Of a stretch of DNA of 64,000 bases, positions 1,530 to 32,907 are shown in pieces (within the stretch, counting starts at the first letter, position 1; the number at the start of each line of letters is the position of its first letter). The stretch is taken from assembly GCA_017502465.1 (NCBI GenBank), contig JAFVUY010000130.1, positions 44,940 to 108,939 of the forward strand, given 5' to 3'. The notes below the pieces were generated by a model. It was not told where the DNA came from and ran no database searches. It saw only the letters and a list, made by a program, of their open reading frames with translations. A program made the translations under genes and the position numbers. This DNA comes from Bacilli bacterium (GTDB taxonomy: Bacteria; Bacillota_I; Bacilli_A; RFN20; CAG-826).

Positions 1530-1907
1530 ATGAAAATTTTAAAACAGTTGTTAATAATTATTGGGTTTTCCTTAATTGGATCGTTAATATCTTACCTGCT
1601 TAGATTAATGAAGATAAATTTTCCCGGTTCTCTTATTGGGATGATACTTCTATTTATCTTCTTAATAATAGGCATAGTCAAAGAACATTCAATCAAAGAT
1701 GTCGCAACATTTTTCATAGATAATATGGGTATATTCTTTGTTCCAGGAGCAGTTGCTATTTTAAATAAACTGGAACTAATTAATGAAATATGGTGGAAGC
1801 TTGCAATTGTTATTTTAGTAGGTTTTCTAGTTTCGTTTATAGCAACATTTTTCTCTGTAAAATTAACTTTATATTTACAAGAAAAAAGGAGGAGAAAAAA
1901 TGATTAA
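1530..1907 (+). CDS. lrgA: CidA/LrgA-family holin-like membrane protein
   Basis: 125 aa with four hydrophobic segments. It overlaps the following LrgB-type gene by 8 nt, which is the classic lrgAB pairing. Confidence 0.8.
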   Translation: MKILKQLLIIIGFSLIGSLISYLLRLMKINFPGSLIGMILLFIFLIIGIVKEHSIKDVATFFIDNMGIFFVPGAVAILNKLELINEIWWKLAIVILVGFLVSFIATFFSVKLTLYLQEKRRRKND

Positions 1908-2640: not shown

Positions 2641-4659
2641 TTAAAAATTATAGTCGAGTCTTGCTAGGATATGGTTTTGATATTTTGAATCTAATTCAAC
2701 AAAATATCCACTCCAACCCCAAACTCTAACAATAAGATTAGGATAATTTTCTGGATGTTTTTGAGCGTCCAATAAAGTTTCTTTGTTAATCGCATTTAAT
2801 TGGATTTGGTGGCCACCTAAACCAATAAACGTTTTAACTAACATCGCAACCTTTTTAATACCTTCATCATTTCTAAAAACAGTGTTATGAAGTTCGATTG
2901 TAAATGGGCCTCCGTTAGCAATGTTAGACAAATCATATTTAGTAAATGATTGAATCGCACTTAATAATCCTTGAGTTTTGACATGTAAGGAAGGGGAGAA
3001 GGATGAACTAAATGGATCTTTTGCTTTTCTGCCATCCGCAGTTGCCCCTACTTTCTCCGCGCTTAAAATGTATTCCATCGCGCTGCCGGTGCCTGCTCTA
3101 TAAACACCACCACGTGAATTTTTTCTTCCATTTAAATTAGAAGCAAATGTATCCATAACAAATGATGCAATATCATCTACGTAATCATCGTTATTGCCCA
3201 TCTTAGGAGCGTTAGCGAGTTCGTACCTTAATTGTTCATAGCCATCAAAATCAGAATGTAACGCGTCTAATAATGTTTCTTTTGAAACACTCTTTTCATC
3301 AAAGACTTTTAATTTAATCGCCGCTAATGCGTCTGATGCATTCGCGATACCTGCTCCATGAATTCCATCATTCGCATATTTAGAACCACCATAAAAGTGG
3401 TCTAAACCTCTTTCAATACATGGATTAATAAACATAGACATTAATGGTTCAGGCATATATTTCATATTGTTTCTATGTTCCACTAATGAATCTATTTCTC
3501 TAATTAATTCATCTTTAAAGTGGTCTTTAAATTCTTCAAACGTTTCAGAAGATAATAAATATTTATCTGTGGTTCTTTCGACAATTAATGGGAAATTCAT
3601 TGTTTCAGCGTTTGGTAAATCGCTAGCTAAACCAGAAGTAATTACTTCCCAGCACGCTGCCACACCATAATTAACTGCATCTTCATAGTCGTAACCAAGT
3701 TTTACCATAAACGGTATAACAACATCATCATTAGAATATTGAGGGAATCCTAAACCTTGTTTAGTTAATCTAGTAGCCCTTTCATAGAACTCTAATGGGG
3801 TGTTTTTATTAACTCTCAAATTGATTTTTGGATCAATTAATTTAAGTTCTTCAGAGGCAAATAAACAAATCTCAGTTAGATCAGAGAATACATCATTACC
3901 GTCTTTATCAATTCCACCTAACACCATTGATTGTCCATTGTCGCCTTTTTGAACACCATCATATAAATCTGTGTCGATATTCATTGAAATAAAGAACAAT
4001 TCTGTTAATTCAATTAATTCATCGCGTGAGATGCCTGCTTTAACTGACATATCAAAATAAGGTTTCATATAGACATCAAATCTACCTAATGTAATATGTT
4101 GGATTCTTGCTAAGCGAAGAATAAAAGATAAAAATCTAACGCAAATAAGAGCTTCATAATAATTTGTCGCGCCATTCATAGGAACATTTTCTAAAGCACT
4201 ATATAATTTAATATTATTTTCTTTTTTAGCTAGTTCTTTATATTTATTAACAATGTTTTCACATGACTTTAAACATAATTTCATGCAGTCATATAGTTCA
4301 GATGAGTCTTTATTAATCTCATAATATTTATCGATTTTATTTAAATAACCGTTGATACCGCCTTCTAAGAAAGTCGCATAATCAATAATCATATTTCCTG
4401 AAAATCTAATCGCTCCAGGAATCTTATCAACATGTTCGTCATGTGGGAGTTCTGTGTGATATCTATTAAAACCAAAAATATCATCTCCAAATAATAATGG
4501 AACCTCTCTATCACACGCTAGAGTGAAGAGTTTTGTGGTTTCCATCATAGGTGAGGCGTCTTTTAAAATATCAGTCACATCATATGGAACATTGACACGA
4601 TATTTGTGATAAGCCTTGGAATTAATATAATCTAGTCTATTCTTTACTCTTTCATTCAT
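2641..4659 (-). CDS. Glycyl radical enzyme, PFL-like superfamily, short form, unknown substrate
   Basis: 672 aa. The C-terminal glycyl-radical motif is NLIVRVWGWSGYFVEL (Gly648, nt 2716-2718), followed by a PFL-type tail. The Cys loop is GVAACWEV (Cys336-x-Glu338, nt 3652-3654 for Cys) and the conserved block MGNNDDYVDD is present. A GGAGG RBS lies 8 nt upstream of the ATG at 4659. Confidence 0.85.
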   Translation of the reverse strand: MNERVKNRLDYINSKAYHKYRVNVPYDVTDILKDASPMMETTKLFTLACDREVPLLFGDDIFGFNRYHTELPHDEHVDKIPGAIRFSGNMIIDYATFLEGGINGYLNKIDKYYEINKDSSELYDCMKLCLKSCENIVNKYKELAKKENNIKLYSALENVPMNGATNYYEALICVRFLSFILRLARIQHITLGRFDVYMKPYFDMSVKAGISRDELIELTELFFISMNIDTDLYDGVQKGDNGQSMVLGGIDKDGNDVFSDLTEICLFASEELKLIDPKINLRVNKNTPLEFYERATRLTKQGLGFPQYSNDDVVIPFMVKLGYDYEDAVNYGVAACWEVITSGLASDLPNAETMNFPLIVERTTDKYLLSSETFEEFKDHFKDELIREIDSLVEHRNNMKYMPEPLMSMFINPCIERGLDHFYGGSKYANDGIHGAGIANASDALAAIKLKVFDEKSVSKETLLDALHSDFDGYEQLRYELANAPKMGNNDDYVDDIASFVMDTFASNLNGRKNSRGGVYRAGTGSAMEYILSAEKVGATADGRKAKDPFSSSFSPSLHVKTQGLLSAIQSFTKYDLSNIANGGPFTIELHNTVFRNDEGIKKVAMLVKTFIGLGGHQIQLNAINKETLLDAQKHPENYPNLIVRVWGWSGYFVELDSKYQNHILARLDYNF

Positions 4660-4671
4660 AATATTAGCCTC

Positions 4672-6132
4672 CTACATAATCTTAACATTTATGTTAAATT
4701 TAGAGAAAATCGATGCATAATTATTTTCTTCTACTTGTTTATATTTTTCATCAAAGTCATAGTCCTCTAATAACCAAGAATATTTGCTACCGCTATATTT
4801 GTTATATGGGAGTAGTTCAATATTCTTAACCCCTAATGAATTCATCTTTCTAGCGATTGCTTCTAAATTATTAAAATTATCTATCACTACCGGAATTAAT
4901 GGGGTTCGGGTAATAAATTCAACATTAGAGTCCACTAATGTAGAATAGTTTTCTAATATCCATTCATTAGATACTCCACAGTATTTAATATGGTTAGAGT
5001 TATCTATAATTTTTAAATCGAATAAAACGTAATCTACATATTGAAGAAGTTCTTTAAAAGCTTCGGGTTTAAGATAGCCACATGTTTGTAAAGCGACATG
5101 AACTTTACCTTTTAATCTTTTACAAACTTCTATTAAGAATGAATATTGTAAGGTTGGTTCTCCTCCAGAAAAGGTTACTCCGCCGTTATTCATTTTATAT
5201 ATCTCTTGGTTTTTCAAAATTAAATTAACTAATTCATCCACACTGTAATCATCGCCACATAATTTAATTAAATTTCTAGGACAAGCTTCTTGGCTTTCTT
5301 TAGTTAAAACATATTTATCATTAACCTTAATTGCCTTATCTAAACATTTGTTACATTTTAAACATCCGTTTGGAGATCTAATATATTGCTTTTGAAAGAC
5401 TTTCCCTTCTGGATTATGACACCACTTACAAGAAAGTGGACAGCCTTTTAAAAAGAAAGTGCTTCTAATACCAGGACCGTCATATATTGAAAATTCTTCA
5501 ATAGAAAATATTCTACCTTTTGGAGTATTTGATATACTTAATTCCTTTAAAATTAATTCGGACATTTTCTTATGACCAAAGTAATTTAAATGCATACCAT
5601 CTTCGATAAAACAATTTTCTTTTTCTTGAAAATAATCAATATTTGCAGCGTTATCAATTATTTTAACCCCTAATTTAGATGCGCTTTCACGTAGTAAAGA
5701 ATTAAAATAATTGATCCTATTTCTAATAGAATAATATAAAGGCGAAATAACAGTAGTTAAGACATATATACTTGCATCAGGGAATATACCTCTTAACTTT
5801 TTTAAAAAACAAAGATAATCACTATAAACCTCTTCCGCTTTCGTGTCTTCTTCGTGATGAATATCATTAAAACCAAGATTAACGACAATCTTCTTGAACT
5901 TAGGAAAATAAGTTATTTCATCTAACAAATATAACCAGTCTTTAAATTTTGTAGAACCAACTCCGATATTTAAAGCCTTATGCTTTTCAAACAAAATAAA
6001 AAAGGAATAATCCATATACATTGGAGATTGTCTCAAAAGTTGAAAATATGAATCTCCTATAAATAAAATATCTGGATTAGTTATATCTTTTAAATCTTCG
6101 ATTTCTTCTTTGACTAAATTAAATTTTTTCAT
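4672..6132 (-). CDS. Fusion protein: N-terminal SGNH/GDSL hydrolase domain + C-terminal glycyl-radical-enzyme activating enzyme (radical SAM)
   Basis: The N-terminal ~200 aa carry all the SGNH blocks: FIGDSY (block I), NIGVGS (II), NLGFNDI (III) and EDGMHLN (V). The C-terminal part has the PflA-type DGPGIRSTFFLKGCPLSCKWCHNPEG CxxxCxxC cluster plus the extra Cys-rich insert CLKCNKCLDKA...ACPRN. The track ORF begins with TTG at 6138; the first ATG is at 6132, 3 nt after the GH43 stop. Confidence 0.85.
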   Translation of the reverse strand: MKKFNLVKEEIEDLKDITNPDILFIGDSYFQLLRQSPMYMDYSFFILFEKHKALNIGVGSTKFKDWLYLLDEITYFPKFKKIVVNLGFNDIHHEEDTKAEEVYSDYLCFLKKLRGIFPDASIYVLTTVISPLYYSIRNRINYFNSLLRESASKLGVKIIDNAANIDYFQEKENCFIEDGMHLNYFGHKKMSELILKELSISNTPKGRIFSIEEFSIYDGPGIRSTFFLKGCPLSCKWCHNPEGKVFQKQYIRSPNGCLKCNKCLDKAIKVNDKYVLTKESQEACPRNLIKLCGDDYSVDELVNLILKNQEIYKMNNGGVTFSGGEPTLQYSFLIEVCKRLKGKVHVALQTCGYLKPEAFKELLQYVDYVLFDLKIIDNSNHIKYCGVSNEWILENYSTLVDSNVEFITRTPLIPVVIDNFNNLEAIARKMNSLGVKNIELLPYNKYSGSKYSWLLEDYDFDEKYKQVEENNYASIFSKFNINVKIM

Positions 6133-6134
6133 AA

Positions 6135-6968
6135 TCAAAAATCAAATTTTTCTATGATTAATCTTTCTTTTCCTCTTGGAGAGTTTGGTTTATGACTAAC
6201 TAAACATCTCACATTATTAATATCGATTAACATTCCATGTCCGCGGTCGTCGGAAAACCTTGTGACGTCTTCTTGCTCCCAACCTTTAAAGAGGTTATCG
6301 CTAGTAGCGACCGCAAGAGAATAAGACATATCTTTATCAAATGAAGACCAAATCATTTTATATTTATTGTCTTCTTTAATAACAAATGGTCCATCAGTGA
6401 CAAAACCACCTCTATCATTTTCTCCAACCCATTTTGCATCGGTAGCGTTAAAGATTTTAATAGGTTCGCCTACTCTATGAGTGAGGTCGAGTGATAATTC
6501 TACAACTTTCATTCCTCCATCATGAACTTGTAGCCATTCATGACAGTAAATTAAATATGGAACTCCATTATCAACGAACAAAGTGCCATCTAAGGCTACT
6601 TCATCGCTTGGAGTGATGCTTTCTCCAGTTAAAGGTTTATAAGGACCTAAGATGGTCTTAGAAACAAAAATATAAGTCCCTCTGTTCTTGCCTTCTAATC
6701 TAATAGTCCCGAATAAATAATATTGGTCGTTATATTTATGAATTTCAGGCGCCCAATATTCAAATGAATCCCATTCATCAAAAAGGACATAAGGTCCATA
6801 GAAGTTTTCTAAATCATCGCTTGTATAGCAAAGAAAAGCATCTTGGTCATCAAAGTTTGGAGATAATCTATCTCCTTTGCCTCGAGAACCAGTTAAATAA
6901 TATTTACCATTTTCCTCTATGATAAAAGGATCTCTAATGCATAGTTCGTCTTTACGGTAGTTTCTCAT
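6135..6968 (-). CDS. GH43-like five-bladed beta-propeller glycosidase (cytoplasmic)
   Basis: 277 aa with no signal peptide. It has the GH43-like blocks IRDPFII (catalytic base Asp), YWAPEI and LDGTLFVD. At the usual EGP general-acid position it reads TDGPFV. Confidence 0.65.
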   Translation of the reverse strand: MRNYRKDELCIRDPFIIEENGKYYLTGSRGKGDRLSPNFDDQDAFLCYTSDDLENFYGPYVLFDEWDSFEYWAPEIHKYNDQYYLFGTIRLEGKNRGTYIFVSKTILGPYKPLTGESITPSDEVALDGTLFVDNGVPYLIYCHEWLQVHDGGMKVVELSLDLTHRVGEPIKIFNATDAKWVGENDRGGFVTDGPFVIKEDNKYKMIWSSFDKDMSYSLAVATSDNLFKGWEQEDVTRFSDDRGHGMLIDINNVRCLVSHKPNSPRGKERLIIEKFDF

Positions 6969-6979: not shown

Positions 6980-8272
6980 TTAATTTTCTAAAGACTCTTC
7001 GCTTTCTTTGTCAAAGAGATAGATATAATCATTTTCAAATGAGAAGCTAATTTCTCCTCCTGAAGCGATTTGGGATAGAAGTTCTCCATCTAATCCAATT
7101 AATGGAACTTTAACCGCTAATTTGGTGTCATTTACATTCAAATGTAAATGATATTCAGTGCCCATCATTTCAGACACTAAAATATTGCCTTTAAATGTTT
7201 CTTTATCTTCTAAACCTAATTTGAAATGGTCTGGTCTAATACCAACATATACTTCTTTTTCTTCTGAAATATTTTTCTCTTTTAGTTTAGAAGAAAGGCG
7301 AGAATTTAATTTAACATCTACTCCAAAAACGTTAACGAAATAATGTCCATCTTTAATAATTAATTTTCCATCAAGGAAGTTCATTTGAGGTGTTCCAATG
7401 AAGCTTGCGACAAATTTGTTTTTTGGAGAATTAAATACTTCTGTAGGCGTTCCAACTTGTTGAACCACTCCGTCTTTCATAACGACAATGCGGTCACCTA
7501 ATGTCATAGCCTCAACTTGGTCATGGGTAACATAGATAAATGTTGTATTAATCTTTTTACGTAATAAAATTAACTCCGCGCGCATTTGGTTTCTAAGTTT
7601 TGCGTCTAAGTTAGATAATGGTTCGTCCATTAAGAAGACTTTTGGTTTTCTAACAATCGCTCTTCCAATCGCGACACGTTGTCTTTGACCACCTGAAAGA
7701 TTTTTTGGTTTTCTTTCTAGGTAATCTTCAATTTCAAGGATCGATGCGGCTTCCATAACTTTATCGTCAATTTCTTGGCGGGTATGTTTACGATATTTAA
7801 TAACTTCAACTTTATTTTGTTTCAAATAAGAAATTTCTTCTTGTAATTGTTTGATTTTTTCTTGGTTTTCAGGTTCGTTTTTAATTGTTAATTTAAGTTC
7901 TTTTGTTAAACTTCTAATCTTTTTTCTGTCGATAGCGAAAGCGGTGTATGGAATTTTCTTTAATTTAAGACCAAACGCCATATTATCGTAGACTGTCATA
8001 TGTGGATATAAAGCGTAGTTTTGGAAAACCATCGCGATATCTCTATCTTTTGGTTCTATATCATTAACTAATCTAGATTCAATATAAACTTCTCCACTAG
8101 AGATTTCTTCAAGACCCGCGACCATTCTTAAAGTTGTGGATTTACCACATCCAGAAGGCCCAACAAAAACCACGAATTCCTTATCTTTAATTTCCAAGTT
8201 GAAATCAATAACTGTAGGTTCGCTATTACCTGGATAGTATTTGTAAACATTTTTTAAAATTACGTCCGCCAT
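6980..8272 (-). CDS. Sugar ABC transporter ATP-binding protein (MalK/MsmK/UgpC type) with internal insertion
   Basis: Walker A is GPSGCGKST, the Q-loop is [12 protein letters not shown], the signature is LSGGQRQR and Walker B is [14 protein letters not shown]-terminal regulatory (TOBE-like) domain is present. About 58 extra residues lie between the Q-loop region and the signature motif. Confidence 0.9.
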
Positions 8273-8276
8273 AAGG

Positions 8277-8771
8277 TTAACTCCTTTTTTTCAGTATCCT
8301 TAATTCTTTTTTAGATAAATAAATATAAACAAATGGCATTGGGAGAACAAGTGCCACAAGTAATGTAATAAGTTTTGTGTGTTCTAATTGAAATCTTAAG
8401 AAAAGTTTCAAAGTAGAACTAATAAGTGAGACATAGAAAATCAAACCACAGATAGAAATAACTAAAATCATAATTTCCCAAAGTGGTCCAATCGATTCTA
8501 TTGGGAGATAAATATTTCCCCAAAAGCCATATAGACACGCAAGTGTGACAACAACAGTTAAAACAATAACTGTTCCGGTGTATTTTCTAACAGGAATGGT
8601 AAATACAGAAAATGTTCCACCGACTTTATTAATTAATTGAAAGGCATAGAAGGGCAAAAATGCCTTCCATGCCTTTTCATAGCCTAATTTTTTTAATACA
8701 AAATACGCGCCTATTGAATAATAGTACGAAAATCCTAATATTCCTAAGAAAACAAATAATGTATTAATCAT
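8277..8771 (-). CDS. Small polytopic membrane protein, unknown function
   Basis: 164 aa with four to five hydrophobic helices. It is wedged between the SBP and ATPase genes with 2-4 nt gaps. I recognise no motif. Confidence 0.5.
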
Positions 8772-8773
8772 AA

Positions 8774-10456
8774 TTAGATATCTTTTGCAGCTTCTTTTAA
8801 GTATTGATAAAGTTGATAAACTTCCATTGAATATTTAGAAGTATCTAATAAATATTTATTAACGATATTCATACGATCTTGATGGGAATATGTTTTACAT
8901 GATGTAAAATCACCATGTCCATCGTGAGAATGATCATTAACAAAGTTATATAAACCCGCCCAAATGTTAGATGTAAATGTATACATCGCTTTTCTATTTG
9001 AGAAATGTTTATTTAATTCTTCTTTATTATTTAAATAAAGTAAGTAATCAACTGAATCATTAATTAAATAATTTTCTTTCTTGTTTGCGTTAGCAATCCA
9101 AGATTTTTCTTCTTCAGTGTAACGAGCGTATTGTCTATTGGAAATCAATTGATTTTCGACAAGTGTCAAAATACCTGAATAAGGTTTATTTTCAACACTG
9201 TAACCTTCTGGATAATAATAATTACCGTTATCATCTAAGAAATAATGTGTACCTAAAACACCATAACGGCAAAGGTCATAATTTTCTTGAGAAGAATAGG
9301 CCCAGTTAATGAAAGATAAGATGTCTTTATAATCTTTTGTGTTTTTTGTGATAACAGCACCGAAAGTGGCAACACTGTTTCTCATAAATCCTTTAGATGT
9401 TGAAGAAGAATCTTTTGTCATTGCTTGAAGAACTGTAAATTCCGCATCTGGATTTTGTCTTTTACATAATCTAGCAACTTCGATTAAGTGTTCAACTGTT
9501 GGATTTTCTAAGAAAACACCTGTTTTTTCTGCGACAAAGTCAGCTTCGCAGTCATCGATGTGTTTGTCATCTGGTGATTTTGGAAGAATGCCATTTGCGA
9601 TCCATCTGGATTCAGTATCTAAAACATTAGAATAGTTGGAATCGATAAGTCCACCGATATCTAAAATGTTTTGTCCATTATATGTTCCAATAGATTTTGT
9701 GTAGTATCCTGCTGGAACATCAAAGGCACCTAAAATACCAGTTTTTTCGATTTCATAAATCGCACCACTGATTGTATAAGGCAAATTATAAGTTTCTTTC
9801 ATTGCCAAACACATTTCTTCGAATGTTACATAGTTATCGACAACTTTCCATTCTGGATGGCTAGCATCATAAACATCTGTATATCCACAAGCATTCATCC
9901 AGTCTTTTCTAACTAAAATACCGTATTTGTATGGATTAATAACAGATGGGATACCAATGATTTCATCATTTGATGTGAGTAATCTCGCTTTAGCGTTTAA
10001 AGTCAATGATTCATCTTCATTACTCCAGACCATATTTGCATTTAAATATTCATAGTCTTCAAAGTCATAATATAAATCACGATATAAACCATTTTGCATG
10101 ATCCAGTCATCGATACCGTCGCCACCTCCCGTATGGGAGATGACGATATCGATTTCACCAGTAGTGACATTGTTTGTAATCGTATTTTTCATGTTTTGGG
10201 TGAAAAATTGAGGATTAAATCTAACTTTTTTACCGGTTTCTTCGTAATACTTAGCTTCAACCGCGCGATAGACTTCTTCTTCTAAAGCACCCTTTCTCCA
10301 TGAATATTCAGCAGAACCACCCGCGTAAATAACAATTTCAGTCGCAGGAGTAGTATCAACTGATTCTGAATCTAAACTTTCACTTGTAGGTGTGGTTGGA
10401 CCACAACTAGTCAGCAAGAGGACTAACAATAACGGTATAATTAATTTATTTTTCAT
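8774..10456 (-). CDS. ABC transporter extracellular solute-binding lipoprotein (large, polysaccharide/oligosaccharide type)
   Basis: 560 aa. The signal peptide has a lipobox (LLLTSC followed by G). Size and composition fit LplA-type sugar-binding lipoproteins that pair with LplB/LplC-type permeases. Confidence 0.75.
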   Translation of the reverse strand: MKNKLIIPLLLVLLLTSCGPTTPTSESLDSESVDTTPATEIVIYAGGSAEYSWRKGALEEEVYRAVEAKYYEETGKKVRFNPQFFTQNMKNTITNNVTTGEIDIVISHTGGGDGIDDWIMQNGLYRDLYYDFEDYEYLNANMVWSNEDESLTLNAKARLLTSNDEIIGIPSVINPYKYGILVRKDWMNACGYTDVYDASHPEWKVVDNYVTFEEMCLAMKETYNLPYTISGAIYEIEKTGILGAFDVPAGYYTKSIGTYNGQNILDIGGLIDSNYSNVLDTESRWIANGILPKSPDDKHIDDCEADFVAEKTGVFLENPTVEHLIEVARLCKRQNPDAEFTVLQAMTKDSSSTSKGFMRNSVATFGAVITKNTKDYKDILSFINWAYSSQENYDLCRYGVLGTHYFLDDNGNYYYPEGYSVENKPYSGILTLVENQLISNRQYARYTEEEKSWIANANKKENYLINDSVDYLLYLNNKEELNKHFSNRKAMYTFTSNIWAGLYNFVNDHSHDGHGDFTSCKTYSHQDRMNIVNKYLLDTSKYSMEVYQLYQYLKEAAKDI

Positions 10457-10474
10457 AATAATTACCGCCGTTTA

Positions 10475-12220
10475 TTAAAATGAAGCTTTATGATATTGAA
10501 GATTGTCAACGTAGATGGTATTTTTAGGAGCCACTATGGAAAGATTACAATAACCAGCTCCACTAAAATCAGCAGTTAACCAATAAGAAATATCATAAGT
10601 AACAGTTAACCATGTGTCAGCTGGAACATTTTCTCCTTGAGTAATTTCTGTTCCATCAAGAGATAATTTAATTTGTGTAGAGAATGTTCCTCCATTAAAG
10701 CCGTTATAAGCAGCGCCTGCTTCGACTAAATGAGTTATTTGAGTAGTGGAAGGTCTAGATTGTAATCTAAGTGAAGCTCCAGTTGGAACATAAATATCAA
10801 ATGATATAGAAGAAATGTGTTGTTGTCTTACATAGGACCAAACATAATACCATGCATTTGCACCATTACCTGCGTTAGCTGGAGAGCCATTAGAAACAGA
10901 GAAATTAGCATCTATTTGATCTTTATAGGTTCCTGTTCCAGTAAAGGCATAACTACTTGTTCTGCCGCCAACATCATTAGAGTGTGGTCCAAATGTACCA
11001 ACATGATCAAGTAAAGTCGTTCCGTTATAAACATGTCCCCATACAAATTCTTCGTCCATTGTATCAATTGGGGCCGTATGCCAATATCTTAAATTGGATA
11101 AATAAATATCTCCTTTAGGTGTTGCTATTTCAGAACACGCAAATGTTGTAGTGTAAGGCCATGTTTCTCTATTGATGTAAGAGTAGTTGAATGAGACGGT
11201 ATACCATTGTTCAGCCTCAACTTTAGTGACTGGAACATTGTCCTTATAAATGAGAATGTCACTATTATTGCCATAAGTTATTGTGGAGCCAATGGATAAA
11301 CCAAAACCTTTATTAGCAACTTGCGTAGCAGATGGTCCGTATAGTCTTAATTGAGCGCCTGCTTTTAAATAAATATCAAATGTTATGTAATTAATATCGT
11401 AGTCGGAAATGTTGTCAGCATAAGCTCTTCCTGATTCGGTAACTAAACTTGGTTCAACCTTGTTGTTCCAGTTATTGTAGTCGTTTGCACCTTCGATTTT
11501 AATTGTGTTAGCAACTCCACCAATATCAACAGTTTGTTTTGTTAAAGTTAATGTAGAGTTTGTTTTTGGAACAACAATGAATTCGCCATTTCTATAGGTG
11601 TTAAATCCGTTTGGATCAACTCTTACTTCTGTGTAGTCACAGTATTGACATTTCCAAACTCTATCTTCGTCTGTACCATTTAAAACTGTTTCTTCTGTTT
11701 CTAAAAGATTGTGTTCTGTTTCAAATGAATGTAAGCAAGCATAAACTAAGGTAATTTCTTCAATTGTTGTTTCACTTAAAGCAACTAAAGAAATATAGTT
11801 ACCACATAAGGTAAGTTGAACCCCACTTGTGACTGAATAAGTTGTGACTTCTCCAGTTTCTTCAAATCTTGTTTCAACATTTAAAGAACCTTCGAATGTA
11901 ACATTGACGCATTCAAGCCCTAATGCTTCTTCAACTTTTGTAATTGCACCTCCTGCATCAAGTGTGCATAGTTTGTCTACCGCTGCTTTAACCTTTGTAT
12001 AAGTGTATTGGGAATGAGTTCCCCCAGCGATAATAGAATCAACATAAGTTGTTGAATCTGTAGGAGCATCAGCTTTGTCTAAAACCTCTGTGTAAACAGA
12101 TTCTGGGTCTTGGTTAGCGTTAACAAAATAACCATCAAAATTAATGGCTGCACCACTTATGATAGTGGCGCAAAAAGCGACGAAACCCAACAAAGTTAAT
12201 ACTGTTAGTTTTTTAGCCAT
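10475..12220 (-). CDS. Secreted/anchored protein with two copies of an uncharacterised CBM-like beta-sandwich module
   Basis: 581 aa with an N-terminal hydrophobic signal or anchor (LTVLTLLGFVAFCATIISGAA). There are two internal modules. One ends ..QWYTVSFNYSY..GDIYLSNLRYWH and the other ends ..TWLTVTYDISY..NTIYVDNLQYHKASF. Confidence 0.6.
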   Translation of the reverse strand: MAKKLTVLTLLGFVAFCATIISGAAINFDGYFVNANQDPESVYTEVLDKADAPTDSTTYVDSIIAGGTHSQYTYTKVKAAVDKLCTLDAGGAITKVEEALGLECVNVTFEGSLNVETRFEETGEVTTYSVTSGVQLTLCGNYISLVALSETTIEEITLVYACLHSFETEHNLLETEETVLNGTDEDRVWKCQYCDYTEVRVDPNGFNTYRNGEFIVVPKTNSTLTLTKQTVDIGGVANTIKIEGANDYNNWNNKVEPSLVTESGRAYADNISDYDINYITFDIYLKAGAQLRLYGPSATQVANKGFGLSIGSTITYGNNSDILIYKDNVPVTKVEAEQWYTVSFNYSYINRETWPYTTTFACSEIATPKGDIYLSNLRYWHTAPIDTMDEEFVWGHVYNGTTLLDHVGTFGPHSNDVGGRTSSYAFTGTGTYKDQIDANFSVSNGSPANAGNGANAWYYVWSYVRQQHISSISFDIYVPTGASLRLQSRPSTTQITHLVEAGAAYNGFNGGTFSTQIKLSLDGTEITQGENVPADTWLTVTYDISYWLTADFSGAGYCNLSIVAPKNTIYVDNLQYHKASF

Positions 12221-12318
12221 AATATAAACCTCCTTTTGTTAATTATGGTGTTAGTATTTTTAATTTCGACTAACTCGAAATATGTTGATAATTTATTATT
12301 AAGCCAAAGGCTTAAAAC

Positions 12319-15300
12319 CTAGTTGATTGAATCATGATAATATCTAATATCTGAGATATAACATGTTCCTTTGATATAGGCTAATTCGTGGCATGTATAG
12401 CCGCTTTTGTATTGACTTTCAAAGTTAGAATAATCAACGACGAGTCGATACCATGTATTAGCGTTAATTGTTGTGACCTCATCTCCGCTAGCGGTATAAA
12501 GATTAATATTTTCGTTGTTAGCAGAACTAAATGATGCGTTAACAGTAAGAGGAACTGTAGAGTGACCTCCATTTGGATTAACTGAAGCTGCTCTTAAATA
12601 AGTGCCTGGTGTTAATAAAATCCAATATTCAATAAAATCAATGTGACCGTTAATAATATTGTTTTTGCTACTTGCTGTAGAGGTGTGTTTGGTGTCAGAT
12701 ATATCTAATTTGTTGTTCCAGCTCGCAGCGGCAGCGGAGTATGCATATGGGTTACTAATTCCTTCAATAACTCCACTAACTTGAGAGTAGCTAGCAGGAT
12801 AAGTTGTATCTATAGAAGTGAATTCAAATGAGCCTTTTCTATATTTATTAAAGACATTAACTTTGAGGATTTGATGTTCGCTATTATCTGGGAGACTAAC
12901 TTTAATTTCTGCATCCCCCTCTTTCATAGCGGTAACCAAATTACCATCTAAGGAAACAAATTCTTCACCTGAAACAATTTCATAATTTAAGGCAGATGGA
13001 TTAATAAATTGTTTGTTAAATATCGCATATGGTTGAATTAAGTATTCTTTTTCAAAATAATCTTTATCGCCCGCGTATAAGGAGATGTTAGATTCAGTTA
13101 AAGAAAGCATATAATTGTTTTTAATAACAATTGAGATAGATTCTCTAATTTTGTAATCGCCATGTGTGATAACAAAACTGATGCTTATATCGCCAACTTC
13201 TTTAAGCAAAATTTCGCTTCCGCCTAAATAATCAACTTTTCTATTAGAGAAGATAAATCCAGAGATATTAGGGTTTTTAATAGCTTCTCCGTTATAGATA
13301 ACTGAGATTTGTTTCTTAAGATTGATAGTGTCTCCAACAAATCCAATATCAATATTGTCCACGAGCACCTTGAATGGAGCGTTATATGAATAATCTTTGA
13401 TATAGGAATTGTCTTTGTAATATGCAAATTCACCTATTTCAAAAACTGTATTTAAAGCGCTGGAAAGATATGTGGAATCATTAACCCTTCCATCGACCTT
13501 TACAACTACTGTACATAATTCGTCTTTGACGATTGTTTTAATAGGTTTTCCATCTTTATAGATAGAAACAAAATTATTTGGTTTAAAGTTATTATCTAAA
13601 CTTATTGTTTTAATTCCGTTTACAAAGTCATTAAAGTAAGAAAGTAATGGGGTGCCACTCCTATAAATATAGGAGAAGGCTAAATATTTATATCCTTTAT
13701 TAACCGCTAAACCATTTAATAAGTTATAAGCATTGATTTTGCTTCTTGATTCTCTATCTAATGCTTTTGCGTTTGAGGAATCATATTTATATAAATTAGA
13801 TGCTTCATCGTGTGTATAAGAAACATAGTTTGGAGAATAAACAACCATTTCATTTTCGGAGGTTGCTTTGTTAGGATTTTCGCCATCAATGGTTAATTCT
13901 CTTTCATCTGTATCAAAAACTAATTCAATATCATTAAGTGGAGAATAGTCGAAATAATAACGAATATTATCAAAATAAGAGACGTCTCCGATATAGCAAG
14001 GGCCAACATAAAGAGTAGCGGCGTCTTGTCCGATTGTCATAGATTTCAAAACAACTTCTGAAATGTTGATGTAGACTGTGTACCATTGATCGTTAGTTAA
14101 TATGTTTGTTGCTTTGCCTTCTTGATTGACTAATAACATATCAGTTCTATTGACTTGAACTTCGTTATAGAAATATTGCTTTGCAGGCGCTCCATAGGCT
14201 CCCATTAAGATACCTTTTTGTCCTAAGTAATAATAATCAAAGGATAAAAGTGTGTAGCCTTTTTCTACCATATAATCATAGGCGACAACGCCGTTTTTAT
14301 TTGTAGTTTCAAAGAACTCAATTCTTGAATCCCATGTAGCCCATGTAGGATTTGCAGCGTTTTTGTTCATATCGTGGTCTGTAATTTTGTATTTATAAGC
14401 ATTTGAATGTCCTTCAAATTCTTCATAACCAAACTCGATATCCGCGCGGAAAGTTTCAACAATTTCTTCGTGTGATAATTTAGCTTCGAAATTTGGATGA
14501 AGTCTAATTGTTGTTTTCGTGCTTACTTCTGGTTTTTCAATACAATAAACACTGACTTCATAAGAGAGCACTTCTTCACCTTTATATTGATTGATGACAC
14601 TAACTCTATTACCATCGCTAGATAAATATGGGTTAATGCCTAAATCCACTCCAACATTACCATCGAATGATTCGCCTCTTACAAAAATTTGGGCATTAAT
14701 ATCGACGTAATTTTTTCTCCTAGGAGAGGTTTCATCAACTGAATAAACATCATAAGATTCTTGGTCAAGGACAATTGAGTTTTCACTTTGAATTGTCGCG
14801 GTGAATTTCTTGCTCTTTAATGTTTTGTTTTTCCAAACACCGTTAACTTCAATATCAACTTCGCCTTCTTTAACACCTATGAATTGTCCATTTGTGTTAA
14901 CTGTAGCGATAGAGGTGTCTAAGCTTGTTAAGGTATAGTTTTCAAGAGGATAATAGTTTCCGTCATATCTAACTTCAACAACCGGAGTAACTGGAGTATT
15001 GACAAAACCTAAACAATCAGCAACTGAGATTGATGGATTAATCATTTGGTTCTTTATAGAGACTTCACATGTATCTTTTTCTTTGCCATGACTAACAGTA
15101 ATAGTTAATTCACCAACTTTACCTAAACAAGACATATGTCCGTTATTATCAATTGTCGCTAAAGTGGTGTCTGAAGAAGACCATGTATATTCAAGTTCTT
15201 CATTATAGTTAGTCAAAACAAAATCATATTCTGCATAAATGTCTACAGTGACATTGCTTTTTTCTAATTCTGGTTTATTAGAAGCGAAAACTTCGAAATA

Positions 15301-15381
15301 AGAAGAATTGTCAAAAGCGCTGATAGAGGCAAAAGAAACAGCCCCTAGACATGTAAGAAATAAAAATAGTTTGTTTTTCAT
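12319..15381 (-). CDS. Large secreted surface protein: Big_2 Ig-like domains + the same CBM-like modules
   Basis: 1020 aa with signal peptide MKNKLFLFLTCLGAVSFASISA. Big_2-type segments include WSSSDTTLATIDNNGHMSCLGKVGELTITV, SLDTSIATVNTNGQFIGVKEGEVDIEV and VSLDGNLVTAMKEGDAEIKV. Module ends are QWYTVYINISE..SYFDNIRYYF and TWYRLVVDYSNF..CYISDIRYYH. Confidence 0.7.
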   Translation of the reverse strand: MKNKLFLFLTCLGAVSFASISAFDNSSYFEVFASNKPELEKSNVTVDIYAEYDFVLTNYNEELEYTWSSSDTTLATIDNNGHMSCLGKVGELTITVSHGKEKDTCEVSIKNQMINPSISVADCLGFVNTPVTPVVEVRYDGNYYPLENYTLTSLDTSIATVNTNGQFIGVKEGEVDIEVNGVWKNKTLKSKKFTATIQSENSIVLDQESYDVYSVDETSPRRKNYVDINAQIFVRGESFDGNVGVDLGINPYLSSDGNRVSVINQYKGEEVLSYEVSVYCIEKPEVSTKTTIRLHPNFEAKLSHEEIVETFRADIEFGYEEFEGHSNAYKYKITDHDMNKNAANPTWATWDSRIEFFETTNKNGVVAYDYMVEKGYTLLSFDYYYLGQKGILMGAYGAPAKQYFYNEVQVNRTDMLLVNQEGKATNILTNDQWYTVYINISEVVLKSMTIGQDAATLYVGPCYIGDVSYFDNIRYYFDYSPLNDIELVFDTDERELTIDGENPNKATSENEMVVYSPNYVSYTHDEASNLYKYDSSNAKALDRESRSKINAYNLLNGLAVNKGYKYLAFSYIYRSGTPLLSYFNDFVNGIKTISLDNNFKPNNFVSIYKDGKPIKTIVKDELCTVVVKVDGRVNDSTYLSSALNTVFEIGEFAYYKDNSYIKDYSYNAPFKVLVDNIDIGFVGDTINLKKQISVIYNGEAIKNPNISGFIFSNRKVDYLGGSEILLKEVGDISISFVITHGDYKIRESISIVIKNNYMLSLTESNISLYAGDKDYFEKEYLIQPYAIFNKQFINPSALNYEIVSGEEFVSLDGNLVTAMKEGDAEIKVSLPDNSEHQILKVNVFNKYRKGSFEFTSIDTTYPASYSQVSGVIEGISNPYAYSAAAASWNNKLDISDTKHTSTASSKNNIINGHIDFIEYWILLTPGTYLRAASVNPNGGHSTVPLTVNASFSSANNENINLYTASGDEVTTINANTWYRLVVDYSNFESQYKSGYTCHELAYIKGTCYISDIRYYHDSIN

Positions 15382-17090
15382 AAGGTGTAATCTCCTTTAT
15401 GTATTAAGTTTTCGAAGTTCTTTAAAATGTTTTTCGCTTTTTCTTTTCTTTTGAAAATGTCTTTGTTATTGAAGTCAATTTCTTCAAAGAATCTTATAAA
15501 TTCTTTTTCTTTAGATTGACCAATTACTTCAACGTTATGGAAGTAATTATCAATAAATTGATAATCTCTCATCATTTTAATCGTGAATTTAATGTCGTTA
15601 TCTTTTAAGGAATAAAAGACATTATTAATATAGGTATGAGAGAAACAATATGTGCTTTCATCTTCTGTATTGATAACACTTTGACCTTTAATATCTCCGT
15701 TAATAAAGACAACGTTATCTTTAAATAAGGCGTGATCGCTTTCTCTAGCGATGGTTAAGAAAGCAGAACGAGTAGGATTTTCTTTTTGTCCGTTATTTAA
15801 GAAATAGTTGTTATAAATAACATTGTTAAACCATCTTCCAGTTATTTTTTCTTTAACAATTTCACCTTTTTCATCTAAGACTTCTCTTCCAAATTCATCA
15901 CGCTTAATAACTTGGGTAGCGAGGTTACAAATAAGAAGCCCTCCACCTTCGTTATGATGCGCGTAATTGTTTTGGAAAATAGTCTTAACACAGCAATTGT
16001 CTAAATCAAATCCTTGTCCATCTTCTGAACCACTTCTTTTATATGTGTAAGCTGCTTCGTTTAATTCAAATAAACAAACATCAACGTTATAAACCCAGAT
16101 AGAAGCGTTCCAATAACCTTTTCTACCTAGATAATTTGCAAAATAGCAGGTGTTGCCTTTGATATAGACGTTTTTCGCACTGGAAATAACAATCCCATCT
16201 GCTCCTGGACATTCAACATAATTATCTAAACAATAAATTCCATCAGATATAAAATAGCCAACGCCTGTTTCATAATTGTTTTCGCTTTCATAAGAAACCC
16301 ATTTGTTATATCCATATCCAACACCTGGTTTATCAACCCATTTGTTATAAACAGTGATTCCAGTTCTAGAAACGTTTTTAACAATGTTATTTACAATCCA
16401 AATGTTTTTAAATTCACTTGGTCCTATCTCGTTATGAGCGATAATACCTCCATAATAACGATAGAAATATCTTCCTTTTGTAACTCCATCTTCTTCATAT
16501 TCTGGAGTAACTTTTTCTAAATCTAATGTGTCTGGATTTACTAAAGAAGAATCTAATTCGTTTTCCCAAATCCAGTTGATATCATGGACATAACAATTTT
16601 TAACAACAATATTTTTCATCTCGCCTTTATGAGGGGTTGTAATATGAATTCCTCTATAAGCTTTAGTTCCTGTTACTTCGATAGAATCAACGATTACATT
16701 TGAATTATTGATTCTAATAACAGAGTCATCTCCGTTGATGACTGGTAATTTTCCTTCTCCGTAACTTCCTAAATAAGTTAGTAAATTGTCACTATTTCTT
16801 TCGAGTAAAATATTCCCCATAAATGTTGAATTTTTCTTTAAAAGGATTGCAATATTAACGTCTTTTGAAAGAATTTGAGGAATTTTTGTTAATGTTTTTA
16901 TTGGAGTATTTTTTGAAAGTCCGTCATTTGAATCGTTACCTAAAACACTATCAATGTAATAAATTTGATAGTTATTAAGATTAACTTCTTCCATCTTTCT
17001 TTCTCTAAGAGAGTAGATGGTTTCTACATCTTGCTTAGAAAGAAGTTCATCTTTATTTAAGATAAATCCGTGTTCAAATGAATGTTTCAT
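15378..17090 (-). CDS. Right-handed parallel beta-helix protein (pectate-lyase-fold), cytoplasmic paralogue
   Basis: 570 aa with no signal peptide. It is collinear with the next gene, sharing the blocks YIDSVLGNDSNDG, YGEGKLPVINGDD, CYVHDINW, GVGYGYNKW, ETGVGYF and YAHHNEGGGLLICN. Confidence 0.7.
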   Translation of the reverse strand: MKHSFEHGFILNKDELLSKQDVETIYSLRERKMEEVNLNNYQIYYIDSVLGNDSNDGLSKNTPIKTLTKIPQILSKDVNIAILLKKNSTFMGNILLERNSDNLLTYLGSYGEGKLPVINGDDSVIRINNSNVIVDSIEVTGTKAYRGIHITTPHKGEMKNIVVKNCYVHDINWIWENELDSSLVNPDTLDLEKVTPEYEEDGVTKGRYFYRYYGGIIAHNEIGPSEFKNIWIVNNIVKNVSRTGITVYNKWVDKPGVGYGYNKWVSYESENNYETGVGYFISDGIYCLDNYVECPGADGIVISSAKNVYIKGNTCYFANYLGRKGYWNASIWVYNVDVCLFELNEAAYTYKRSGSEDGQGFDLDNCCVKTIFQNNYAHHNEGGGLLICNLATQVIKRDEFGREVLDEKGEIVKEKITGRWFNNVIYNNYFLNNGQKENPTRSAFLTIARESDHALFKDNVVFINGDIKGQSVINTEDESTYCFSHTYINNVFYSLKDNDIKFTIKMMRDYQFIDNYFHNVEVIGQSKEKEFIRFFEEIDFNNKDIFKRKEKAKNILKNFENLIHKGDYTL

Positions 17091-17092
17091 AA

Positions 17093-18997
17093 CTATTTAT
17101 AAAACGCTCCTAAGTAAGGTAATAATCCTGTATCAACGCCCAAATAATCGTATTGAAGTTGAACTGGTAATTTTCTTGCGTATTCAAGTAAGGATGTAGA
17201 TGGAACAAATGTCTTTGAAACATCATATCCGTCATAATCATTTGGTAAAGTAAAATCCAATTGAGCGTCTAAAATCGCGTAAGCGTCATCGCTTAAAACA
17301 AGTTCACTTTGGATTTCATTACCGTCTTGAATGTTATGGTATAAATTACCTTCAAAAACAGGATCTAAGATTGTGTAATTTGCGAAAATTGGTTTTGCTT
17401 CTTCCGCATAAGAATAGAAAATGTTGTTTCTATAAATATGATTACGAGAAACTTTTGAATCTTCGCAGTTAATAATGTGTTGTTTTTCAATGTCTCCTCT
17501 AACTAGGACTGTGTTGTTTTCAGCGACAAAATCATCGCATTGTCTTGCAAGAGTAATAAACGCACTTCTATGTGAGTTTGTTTCGATACCGTTAAAGGCA
17601 AAGACATTGTTACGACAGTAATTGTTTTTCCAAATACCAAGTAATGACTGTTTTGAGGTATTCGCTAAAGTGCCGTCGATATTATATGTAAATAATGATG
17701 AGGTGTTATTACATAGTAATAAACCACCACCTTCATTATGATGAGCGTAGTTATAATAGAAATGGATATCTTCACACGCGATATCAATATCAAATCCTTC
17801 TCCATCTCCCGCACCGTGTTGAAGATATGTATAGGCCGCTTCGTTATAAAGCATATAACCACCTCTAACGTTATGTACCCAAATACCCGCGTTGAAATAG
17901 CCGCCTTTACCTAAATAAGATGCTTTGTAGGATGTGTTTCCAACAATCCAGGCGCCATCCGTGCCATCAACAACAATACCATCGCCACCTGTGCATAAGG
18001 TAAAGTTGTCTTTAACAACAACGTTCGTATATGGGAAATAACCAACTCCGGTTTCAAAGTTTTGATAATCAGGGTTTTCTGGAACATATTTGTTATATCC
18101 ATAACCAATTCCGCCTCTATTGACCCAATAATTGTAGAAGTTAATACCAATATGCGAGACGTTTTCAATTCTATTATTCTCTACGAAAACGTGGTCATAT
18201 GTAATAGGGCCAGCTTTAATAGAAGCTTCAACATCAATCGTTCCATTAAAGAATTCAATTCCTCCATAAAGACGACGATATCTTAAAACTCTATTTGTAG
18301 GTGTAACATTTTCAGGATTAATGTCTTTTGGATGTGTTTCGTTTGGACTTAAAGGATATTCCCAGTTCCAGTTGACATCGTGGACATAGCAACCTTTAAT
18401 AACGATGTTTTTATAAACACCAGATTTACGAGGTAATACATAAATACCTCTTGTGCAGGCTGGGCCTGTAATTTCAATATTATAGACGCGAGTGTTTTCT
18501 TCTCTAATCCATAAAATCGCGTTTGTAGTGACTGTAGAGTCATCTCCATCACCATGAATAACAGGCATATCACCTTCACCATAAGCATCTAAAATAAATG
18601 GATATTCTTCACTAGAGGTGTATCCAGTTAAAATTAGGTTTCCATAAAAATAGGAACCTCTTTTTAATAAGATTCTAATTGGGGAGAAATCCGCATAAGT
18701 AGAAATAATTGTTTCAACACTGCTAAGAGTTTTTTTAGGAGTGATTGGATCAAGACCTGTATTTGAATCATTGCCAAAAAGGGAATCGATATAGAATGTT
18801 CTATAGATGTTATTAATAACATCTTCGCTTATATCTTCATAAGTAGGTGCACTAGGTATGTTATAGACACCCGTTTCAACTTCTGGTTCTATAGACTCCG
18901 TTGTTGATTCAGTGTCAGAAGAATTAAAAAATCCAGTTGTCGTGCAAGAGACAAGTGATAGAGCTAATAAAGGGAATAATAGTAATGATTTTTTCAT
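17093..18997 (-). CDS. Right-handed parallel beta-helix protein, lipoprotein paralogue
   Basis: I prefer the start at ATG 18997 (MKKSLLLFPLLALSLVSC lipobox, GAAAGGA RBS) over the track start at 19069, which overlaps the permease gene. Shared blocks are YIDSLFGNDSNTG, YGEGDMPVIHGDGDD, CYVHDVNW, GIGYGYNKY, ETGVGYF and YAHHNEGGGLLLCN. Confidence 0.75.
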   Translation of the reverse strand: MKKSLLLFPLLALSLVSCTTTGFFNSSDTESTTESIEPEVETGVYNIPSAPTYEDISEDVINNIYRTFYIDSLFGNDSNTGLDPITPKKTLSSVETIISTYADFSPIRILLKRGSYFYGNLILTGYTSSEEYPFILDAYGEGDMPVIHGDGDDSTVTTNAILWIREENTRVYNIEITGPACTRGIYVLPRKSGVYKNIVIKGCYVHDVNWNWEYPLSPNETHPKDINPENVTPTNRVLRYRRLYGGIEFFNGTIDVEASIKAGPITYDHVFVENNRIENVSHIGINFYNYWVNRGGIGYGYNKYVPENPDYQNFETGVGYFPYTNVVVKDNFTLCTGGDGIVVDGTDGAWIVGNTSYKASYLGKGGYFNAGIWVHNVRGGYMLYNEAAYTYLQHGAGDGEGFDIDIACEDIHFYYNYAHHNEGGGLLLCNNTSSLFTYNIDGTLANTSKQSLLGIWKNNYCRNNVFAFNGIETNSHRSAFITLARQCDDFVAENNTVLVRGDIEKQHIINCEDSKVSRNHIYRNNIFYSYAEEAKPIFANYTILDPVFEGNLYHNIQDGNEIQSELVLSDDAYAILDAQLDFTLPNDYDGYDVSKTFVPSTSLLEYARKLPVQLQYDYLGVDTGLLPYLGAFYK

Positions 18998-19002
18998 ATT
19001 TG

Positions 19003-19965: not shown

Positions 19966-19966
19966 A

Positions 19967-30377: not shown

Positions 30378-30406
30378 AGTTTTAAACTCCTTTAAAATTT
30401 ATTACA

Positions 30407-32848: not shown

Positions 32849-32907
32849 ATTATACCTCCAGCATTATGAACTAAAATTAAAAGCTGGTTTACCAAAAAAG
32901 ATTAAGA

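Follow-up and report, generated by a model that had tools for sequence, protein, structure and literature searches.

An activating enzyme (activase) acts catalytically on the polypeptide of its glycyl-radical enzyme (GRE), and not on a metabolite. Activases are described as comprising a radical S-adenosylmethionine (SAM) domain with or without a ferredoxin-like domain and nothing further, and eight cysteine residues are usual in the insert of all except the activases of pyruvate formate-lyase (PFL-AE) and ribonucleotide reductase (RNR-AE) (2026 GRE superfamily review). No fused activase is mentioned in that review. Among the TIGR02494 (PFLE_PFLC) activases the only solved example is that of Escherichia coli PFL-AE (PDB 3C8F/3CB8). 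We have analysed a 64,000-nt stretch of the genome of a Bacilli bacterium (contig JAFVUY010000130.1, positions 44,940 to 108,939; henceforth the window), in which an open reading frame (ORF) joins an SGNH/GDSL hydrolase domain to a complete GRE activase in a single polypeptide.

An earlier note on this DNA had taken GRE activases to be stand-alone proteins and the fused architecture to be undescribed, and both points stand. The nearest matches listed are stand-alone activases of 275-311 aa, and no fusion of an SGNH/GDSL domain with a glycyl-radical or radical-SAM domain was found in the literature searched, the scope of which left out most subscription journals and the InterPro architectures. 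The combination is undescribed in the sense of not having been found here.

The fused gene and its domains

The gene is a single ORF on the minus strand (window 4672-6132) with an ATG start, encoding 486 aa plus a stop codon. The ORF delimited mechanically (4672-6138) begins with a TTG codon at 6138, two codons upstream of the ATG at 6132, which is the likely start codon. A plus-strand reading of 4672-6132 was rejected, as it contains stops throughout.

That one ORF joins an SGNH/GDSL hydrolase to a full GRE activase, as the earlier note had proposed, is borne out by family searches in which both halves score above the cut-offs. PF13472 (Lipase_GDSL_2) matches aa 24-188 with 38.2 bits against a gathering cut-off of 32.9, and PF00657 matches the SGNH half with 24.4 bits (cut-off 23.6). 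A match to the NCBIfam model TIGR02494 ('glycyl-radical enzyme activating protein') extends over aa 208-470 with 251.2 bits (cut-off 174.35), and Pfam Fer4_12 and Radical_SAM cover aa 218-416. In an AlphaFold2 model of the full-length protein the first domain ends in a helix (184-198) and the second begins with a strand (205-215), with the linker located between them. The fusion differs from single-function activases of about 245-310 aa in its length of 486 aa and its N-terminal SGNH domain. The positions of all the features are given in Table 1.

The activating-enzyme half

Foldseek superposition of the activase half of the full-length model with E. coli PFL-AE gave target-normalised TM scores of 0.83-0.86 (0.86 for 3cb8). 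The three cysteine residues C231, C235 and C238, located in GCPLSCKWCHNPEG, are invariant across the aligned fused and stand-alone relatives, as are the DGPGIR and GGE motifs. The roles of the DGPGIR loop and of GGE as a SAM-binding motif are known from PFL-AE. With the stand-alone short-GRE activases of Clostridia (~281 aa) the activase half has 55-60% identity.

A ferredoxin-like cysteine insert had been noted before and is present, with five cysteine residues instead of the usual eight. None of the five varies among the fused proteins and the nearest stand-alone short-GRE activases, and since five are enough for one cluster this subtype of activase probably carries one auxiliary cluster. 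The activase of an unfused operon discussed below (locus L006) carries an eight-cysteine insert instead. By every sequence criterion that could be applied, the C-terminal half belongs among the GRE activases.

The SGNH esterase half

The SGNH domain modelled alone (AlphaFold2, 68 homologues) has a pLDDT of 94 and a pTM of 0.91. Foldseek matched the model with probability 1.00 and TM scores of 0.70-0.75 to 7pzh/7pzg, 1wab/1bwq, Axe2 and 4ppy, so that its nearest solved structures are acetyl-esterases and the three-layer alpha/beta/alpha SGNH fold is present. The only significant sequence matches in the PDB are subunits of the platelet-activating factor acetylhydrolase PAF-AH Ib, the best being 1fxw_F (beta subunit; E = 1.3e-07).

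All four of the SGNH blocks claimed for the domain (GDSY, NIGVGS, NLGFND and DGMHLN) are present, with the refinement that the oxyanion glycine position of block II is occupied by Ser60. G26, S28, G87, N89 and H181 are invariant in 68 sequences of the SGNH subfamily and D178 is ≥90% conserved; Ser28, Asn89, Asp178 and His181 are retained in every fusion. Asn89 aligns with the residue that we take to be Asn104 of PAF-AH, and Ser60 with the oxyanion glycine, presumably Gly74, of PAF-AH Ib. Gly57 of block II is conserved. The column occupied by Ser60 is glycine in ≥90% of the SGNH subfamily (GxGGT), and is serine (GxGST) only in the clade linked to a glycoside hydrolase of family GH43. P0121 and P0132, which are stand-alone SGNH proteins linked to the operon, carry this change too, so it occurs in fused and stand-alone proteins alike. 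The oxyanion contact in SGNH enzymes is made by a backbone NH, and the backbone NH at the position of Ser60 could still serve this role.

The protein sequence has no signal peptide, and the SGNH half would therefore be a cytoplasmic esterase. It belongs to the SGNH superfamily, block II being the one reservation, and is probably a serine esterase resembling PAF-AH-Ib, sialate O-acetylesterase and Axe2, and probably acetyl-specific, a specificity suggested by the nearest structures and by the setting in a glycan operon.

Conservation of the fusion

In a search of 5.8 billion proteins, three clusters share the fused architecture: P0001 (98% identity, 486 aa), P0002 (69%, 484 aa) and P0003 (61%, 488 aa). 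All other matches listed (P0004-P0120) are stand-alone activases of 275-311 aa. The fused clusters hold 28, 10 and 3 members, and a full length of 484-488 aa is reached by at least 21 of those listed. Members come from dozens of contigs, the longest 220 kb, in ENA, Logan and NCBI, generated in independent projects with independent assemblers. One entry in NCBI nr (P0291) is identical to the fusion protein of the window, which has been publicly available and unnoticed, rather than unseen. Truncated or chimeric cluster members (P0303, P0312 and P0313) are contig-end fragments. Two sequences that might have been natural split versions of the protein, P0305 (161 aa) and P0312 (289 aa), were rejected as contig-end or chimeric fragments.

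The order of genes is GH43, fusion and 672-aa GRE in every locus with enough flanking sequence, so that the fusion has the same short GRE as its neighbour in each of them. In L001 and L052 the entire upstream array of transporter and surface-protein genes is conserved as well. The linker is SISNTPKG, NKKEDVG or NAPHIEKKG according to the fused clade; sequence and length vary, the reading frame is retained, and the former start codon of the activase has gone from all the fused clades. Ratios of non-synonymous to synonymous substitution rates (dN/dS; Nei-Gojobori) range from 0.06 to 0.39 in the SGNH half and from 0.10 to 0.18 in the activase half, and in the closest pair synonymous and non-synonymous changes stand at 10:3 and 16:7 for the two halves, respectively. 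Both halves are under purifying selection and neither is decaying.

Unfused relatives and distribution

A search with the SGNH part alone found the 201-aa stand-alone protein P0121 (52% identity); its other matches were mostly proteins of ~350 aa in which MORN-like repeats at the N-terminus precede the SGNH domain, together with a few shorter stand-alone or fragmentary SGNH proteins. The closest arrangement to that of the window is found in L006, where the genes are ordered as MalK-type gene, GH43, a 201-aa SGNH protein (P0121), a 283-aa activase and a GRE. This is the gene order of the window; the GH43 is 68% identical, the SGNH protein is 52% identical to the SGNH half of the fusion and has the GxGST form of block II, and the MalK-type gene is 60% identical to that of L002, a contig of the fused clade. 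The TAA stop of the SGNH gene and the ATG of the activase gene are 1 nt apart. The two halves of the fusion thus exist in L006 as separate neighbouring genes, as in an adjacent-gene (Rosetta-stone) fusion, with the activase-GRE pair there being of another subtype. No PDB or NCBIfam match was obtained with the fragment of the L006 GRE. In L015 GH43 is followed by an SGNH gene that is cut by the end of the contig. The GH43 neighbour is found in L001, L002, L003/4, L052/53, L006 and L015.

Loci with the short GRE and an unfused activase were examined (those named being L005, L010-L013, L054 and L055), and in none of the eight was an SGNH gene matched within the sequence recovered. L005, L010 and L011 are Clostridia-type contigs with wide flanks and a GC content of 44-55%, and L013 is short (GC 52%). 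The closest unfused relative is L012 (32% GC), with 487 nt recovered upstream of the activase. L054 has 87 nt upstream of its activase and the activase of L055 is cut by the contig end, so these two tell us little about what lies upstream. The GREs of L012 and L054/L055 are those closest to the window GRE among unfused loci (66-67% identity; 66% for L054/L055), with an activase of 281 aa, and no GH43 or SGNH match was obtained in the sequence recovered from these loci. In L054 (88-7930) and L055 (1-7533) the activase, the short GRE and a DUF4867 cupin are followed by Rep_trans, helix-turn-helix (HTH) and serine-recombinase genes. Because Rep_trans and serine-recombinase genes adjoin it there, the activase-GRE pair may be a mobile cassette.

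The distribution of the SGNH part is different. Among 1.84 billion representative proteins there are 374 matches to it (E ≤ 0.001), and P0002 is the only one of fused length whose SGNH domain is N-terminal. Other proteins of 400-500 aa that begin with an SGNH domain (P0218, P0270, P0198, P0204, P0212 and others) were rejected as fusions, as they have no radical-SAM domain. Among these matches and the metagenome loci described below, relatives of the SGNH domain are stand-alone proteins of ~200 aa or MORN-like/SGNH proteins of ~350 aa, and none is located near an activase or GRE. The paralogous MORN-like family (P0122, P0136, P0144 and others; L007-L009, L016-L040) occurs among low-GC bacteria of the gut, where its gene contexts are unrelated.

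A scan of metagenomes with an SGNH profile gave 36 loci with relatives, all of ≤43% identity; no activase or GRE lies less than 6 kb from any of the 36, and the scan yielded no further fused or unfused operons. The representative genomes of GTDB contain no fusion in the scan performed, which returned one stand-alone Clostridia activase of 52% identity (L005). In L046 (6001-7999) an SGNH gene, a GH43 gene (39% identical to that of the window) and a second SGNH gene lie in a row with no GRE; the pairing of GH43 with SGNH therefore recurs outside the GRE context.

The short-GRE/activase pair is very widespread in Clostridia. With no SGNH match in the unfused loci examined and no activase or GRE near the SGNH genes elsewhere, the esterase would not be a general partner of the GRE system. 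In the sequences searched, only a narrow group of low-GC Bacillota (GC 29-32%) has this link. The labels of the samples and a relative from sheep rectum suggest that the group probably lives in the ruminant gut.

The partner short GRE

The start of the 672-aa GRE lies 12 nt downstream of the fusion. Its cysteine loop AACWE (Cys336-x-Glu338) and glycine loop RVWGWSGYF (Gly648) are kept in six family members. The CXE motif is a marker of the 1,2-eliminase and isomerase classes (review). The best alignment is with the B12-independent glycerol dehydratase (residues 88-670, 270 bits); HypD, propanediol dehydratase and PflD come next. At both of the positions aligned with His164 and Asp447 of glycerol dehydratase the window GRE has asparagine. 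It lies below the cut-off of every NCBIfam equivalog, the best score being that for the TIGR01774 subfamily (333 bits against 678), and the scores for HypD, PflD-like, CutC and HpfG are all far under their cut-offs.

Searching with the short GRE gave at least 120 clusters at ≥51% identity, mostly of 656-693 aa, in which the VAACWE and RVWGWSGYF loops are invariant. They are labelled only 'pyruvate formate-lyase' in metagenome-assembled genomes of Clostridia, Ruminococcaceae and Oscillospiraceae. The family is probably an uncharacterised eliminase or isomerase of the CXE type. GREs that act on sugar phosphates are known (YbiW and PflD, which are C-O lyases), and the family of the DUF4867 cupin, whose gene follows the GRE in L054/L055, has a proposed role in ketose metabolism. 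Together with the AraA-like isomerase of the window operon, these suggest that the substrate of the short GRE is derived from a carbohydrate, which we regard as a lead and not as a result.

The operon and the window

The GH43 gene directly upstream ends with a TGA stop 2 nt ahead of the ATG of the fusion. No Shine-Dalgarno sequence precedes that ATG (6108-6141, minus strand), while AGGAGG lies 8 nt before the ATG of the GRE (4660-4684, minus strand). The abutting GH43 stop and the missing Shine-Dalgarno sequence, set against the AGGAGG of the GRE, suggest that the fusion is translationally coupled and weakly expressed and that the GRE is strongly expressed, and fit a fusion protein that is a low-abundance accessory.

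At the head of the operon (21820-25074, minus strand) lie a weak SGNH-like ORF and genes for a WbsX-like protein and for an AraA-like isomerase, the last of which is weakly similar to L-arabinose isomerase and to the sulfoquinovose isomerase SftI. A gene for an AraC-family regulator (25212-26084, plus strand) is divergent from the operon, and an AraC regulator also precedes the unfused activase-GRE pair of Clostridia (L010, L011). Within the array, 15378-17090 and 17093-19069 (minus strand) encode paralogous proteins of 570 and 658 aa that have motifs like NNYAHHNEGGGLL in common. Both have conserved counterparts in the operons of L001 and L052, and one has a lipoprotein-like N-terminus. Pfam gave no match to either paralogue; they may be beta-helix glycan-active enzymes.

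Beyond the GRE, and convergent with it, there is an LrgA/LrgB-type membrane pair (1530-2631, plus strand), of which the LrgB gene and part of a gene in the LrgA position are also found in L001. Relatives of LrgAB include transporters of small carboxylates, so the pair could move a product of the GRE pathway in or out. On the far side of this pair is a DUF4886 (SGNH-like) gene (299-1027, minus strand). The earlier note had counted three further SGNH-type esterases at the locus; two candidates were confirmed, the DUF4886 gene and a GDSL_2 match at 21820-22503 that is below threshold (23.6 against 32.9). A subfamily hidden Markov model found no second copy of the SGNH type of the fusion in the window.

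A separate sugar block (28572-34125, minus strand) encodes an L-fucose isomerase, a GH38 alpha-mannosidase and a GH29 alpha-L-fucosidase, with RhuM-like and HTH-hexapeptide genes nearby. The window has a GC content of 32% and uses TGA as a stop codon. It includes the arrays pcrA-ligA-gatAB and dnaX-ybaB-recR-tmk-holB, and together these features indicate a low-GC member of the Bacillota. Rfam and tRNA scans found two tRNAs only, which are irrelevant to the fusion.

Table 1. Location of features of the fused gene and its neighbours in the window
Feature	Position	Strand	Basis
Fused ORF: SGNH esterase, short linker and GRE-activating enzyme	4672..6132	-	Pfam, NCBIfam
SGNH/GDSL esterase domain, aa 1-198	5539..6132	-	PF13472, fold model, PDB/Foldseek matches
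SGNH block I GDSY, aa 26-29, nucleophile Ser28	6046..6057	-	Motif
SGNH block II NIGVGS, aa 55-60, Gly57 and Ser60	5953..5970	-	Motif, alignment
SGNH block III NLGFND, aa 85-90, oxyanion Asn89	5863..5880	-	Motif, alignment
SGNH block V DGMHLN, aa 178-183, triad Asp178 and His181	5584..5601	-	Motif
Interdomain linker SISNTPK, aa 199-205 (~7 residues)	5518..5538	-	Model secondary structure
GRE-activating enzyme domain, aa 206-486	4675..5517	-	TIGR02494, Foldseek
DGPGIR, aa 218-223, just upstream of CX3CX2C	Within activase domain	-	Motif
Radical-SAM CX3CX2C, CPLSCKWC, aa 231-238 (C231, C235, C238)	5419..5442	-	Motif
Ferredoxin-like insert, 5 Cys (C257, C260, C263, C284, C292)	5257..5364	-	Cys pattern CxxCxxC...CP...C
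GGE, aa 323-325	Within activase domain	-	Motif
Cognate short GRE, 672 aa, PFL-like and Gly_radical domains	2641..4659	-	PF02901, PF01228
GH43 glycoside hydrolase, 277 aa, directly upstream	6135..6968	-	Pfam
Glycan-utilisation array: MalK-type ATPase, solute-binding lipoprotein, two permeases, large surface proteins, second SGNH-like ORF, AraA-like isomerase, WbsX-like protein	6980..25074	-	Family searches
AraC-family regulator, divergent	25212..26084	+	Family search

Discussion

On balance it is probable that the fusion is a bifunctional polypeptide that arose by the merger of two neighbouring cistrons of a glycan-utilisation operon, each half keeping its usual job. This reading draws on L006, where the SGNH and activase genes are separate, adjacent and 1 nt apart, and also on the intact motifs and purifying selection of both halves, the recurrence of the fused ORF in one and the same operon, the activase-GRE pairs without an SGNH match in the eight unfused loci examined, the SGNH relatives that lie apart from any activase or GRE, the acetyl-esterase structures nearest to the SGNH half and the missing Shine-Dalgarno sequence. 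We infer that the N-terminal half would remove O-acetyl groups from oligosaccharides brought in by the ABC importer of the operon, alongside the adjacent GH43. By analogy with the rest of the family, a [4Fe-4S] cluster held by C231, C235 and C238 in the C-terminal half would, with SAM, abstract a hydrogen atom from Gly648 of the GRE. The two chemistries would be independent of one another and not chemically coupled; the fusion would only lock co-expression, reflecting proximity in the operon, and the ~7-residue linker would be the remnant of a very short intergenic gap. The merger might have come about in either of two ways: an L006-like operon may have lost a stop codon, or a mobile activase-GRE cassette may have been captured in frame behind an SGNH gene.

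Several observations weigh against a merger of this simple kind. The activase of L006 is 46% identical to that of the window and has the eight-cysteine insert. Its GRE is 27% identical over the N-terminal 143 residues that can be aligned, so that this is a different activase-GRE pair. Judged from these sequences L006 is not the direct ancestor of the fusion, and a simple loss of a stop codon is not demonstrated. The GH43-SGNH module stands in front of two different activase-GRE pairs, that of the window and that of L006, a recurrence that could reflect a real functional tie of the esterase to the GRE chemistry. The fusion has been retained over at least 39% protein divergence without reversion, so it at least does no harm and may even bring an advantage. 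Replacement of the canonical oxyanion glycine of block II by serine has occurred in exactly the GH43-linked clade. Finally, the full-length model (pLDDT 85.5, pTM 0.64) gives no reliable relative orientation of the two domains.

The recurrence of the GH43-SGNH module directly before the activase and GRE in two versions is the starting point for an alternative in which the domains are functionally coupled. The SGNH domain would de-O-acetylate or sense a sugar or sugar derivative that the GRE cleaves or dehydrates, with the tether linking activation of the GRE or delivery of its substrate to turnover by the esterase. Retention of the fusion down to 61% identity with the catalytic residues intact is consistent with this, as are the CXE motif of the eliminase and isomerase classes in the GRE, the precedent of the sugar-acting GREs YbiW and PflD, and genes of sugar-isomerase type near the short GRE (AraA-like in the window, DUF4867 in L054/L055). 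However, the target of an activase is the GRE protein, for which it is needed only catalytically, and a tethered esterase provides no obvious path for channelling. No SGNH match was found in any of the eight unfused short-GRE loci examined, a version with separate genes exists in L006, and the full-length model carries no information on inter-domain contacts. We therefore consider functional coupling unlikely. Its most specific form, a mechanistic tie between the SGNH domain and the radical system in which the domain deacetylates or senses the carbohydrate-derived substrate of a new sugar-acting short GRE and activation becomes substrate-dependent, appears rather improbable; were it true, this would be the first activase with a built-in domain for substrate processing or regulation, and glycan catabolism could be expected to include a new GRE reaction. 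The earlier suggestion that the fusion channels a substrate to the radical enzyme is not borne out by the separate genes of L006 and the eight unfused loci lacking SGNH, and the same separate adjacent genes speak against its other proposal, that of SGNH as a docking or regulatory module.

The chain might be translated as one and operate as separate units, with an internal start at Met190 or proteolysis in the linker freeing the activase, and the fusion serving as genetic packaging. Met190 (window 5563-5565, minus strand) is an in-frame ATG in the last SGNH helix that is conserved in all three fused clades, and the variable linker is probably flexible. Yet there is no Shine-Dalgarno-like sequence before Met190, an activase begun there would still carry 15 residues of the SGNH helix, and the original start codon of the activase has been lost in all clades, which makes this quite improbable. 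It is very unlikely that the SGNH half is catalytically dead and survives only to give the activase structural support, docking or solubility. The serine at position 60 in the GH43-linked clade and the modest Pfam score of 38 bits might be read in this way, but Ser28, Asn89, Asp178 and His181 are kept across the 68 subfamily members and all the fusions, the same glycine-to-serine change is present in the stand-alone operon-linked P0121 and P0132, the oxyanion contact is one of the backbone NH, and the dN/dS of this half (0.06-0.39) is that of a domain under constraint. A missed stop, a frameshift or a chimeric assembly that joined two genes, against which the earlier note had advised a check, can be given virtually no credence. 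Identical or near-identical in-frame ORFs occur in dozens of independent contigs and assemblies, falling into three divergent clades with different linkers and with dN/dS below 1. Truncated and chimeric members do exist, but these are contig-end fragments, and no positive evidence for an artefact was found.

If the cistron-merger explanation is correct the mechanism is probably mundane, and the value of the fusion lies mainly in giving a handle on a large unannotated family of GREs. It can be used as a Rosetta-stone link that connects the widespread short GREs (656-693 aa) with the cytoplasmic processing of acetylated glycans. These GREs occur in gut and rumen Clostridia and low-GC Bacillota in the context of GH43, sugar-isomerase-like genes and an ABC importer. 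The operon is a concrete handle, offering candidate substrates for a new radical reaction on carbohydrates, for which the recent 'anhydroglycolysis' of YbiW/PflD is a precedent.

Comparison with known systems

The fusion has the CX3CX2C, DGPGIR and GGE motifs and the partial TIM-barrel fold in common with the TIGR02494 activases, and like theirs its gene is immediately upstream of that of its GRE. It differs from them in the ~200-aa SGNH domain at the N-terminus, the stand-alone relatives listed (275-311 aa) being unextended. In contrast to the five-cysteine insert of the fusion, PFL-AE has no ferredoxin-like domain at all, so that such an insert does not strictly define the family.

The SGNH half shares its fold, at TM scores of 0.70-0.75, with the PAF-AH Ib subunits, with the sialate (sialic-acid) O-acetylesterase of Phocaeicola vulgatus (PDB 7PZG/7PZH/6NJC) and with the acetyl-xylooligosaccharide esterase Axe2 of Geobacillus (PDB 3W7V). 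PAF-AH Ib and the bacterial SGNH acetyl-esterases have the Ser-Asp-His triad and the block III asparagine in the same order and with the same spacing as the fusion. The fusion differs from these enzymes in that its SGNH domain is only 13-25% identical to theirs, in the location of Ser60 at the oxyanion glycine, and in the attachment of a radical-SAM domain.

The GRE of the window shares the Cys-x-Glu loop and the RVxG glycine loop with the characterised CXE-type GREs, namely glycerol dehydratase (1R8W), HypD (6VXC), propanediol dehydratase (5I2A), and PflD and YbiW (8ID0/8YJO, 8ID7), and is shorter than these by ~100-130 residues at the N-terminus.

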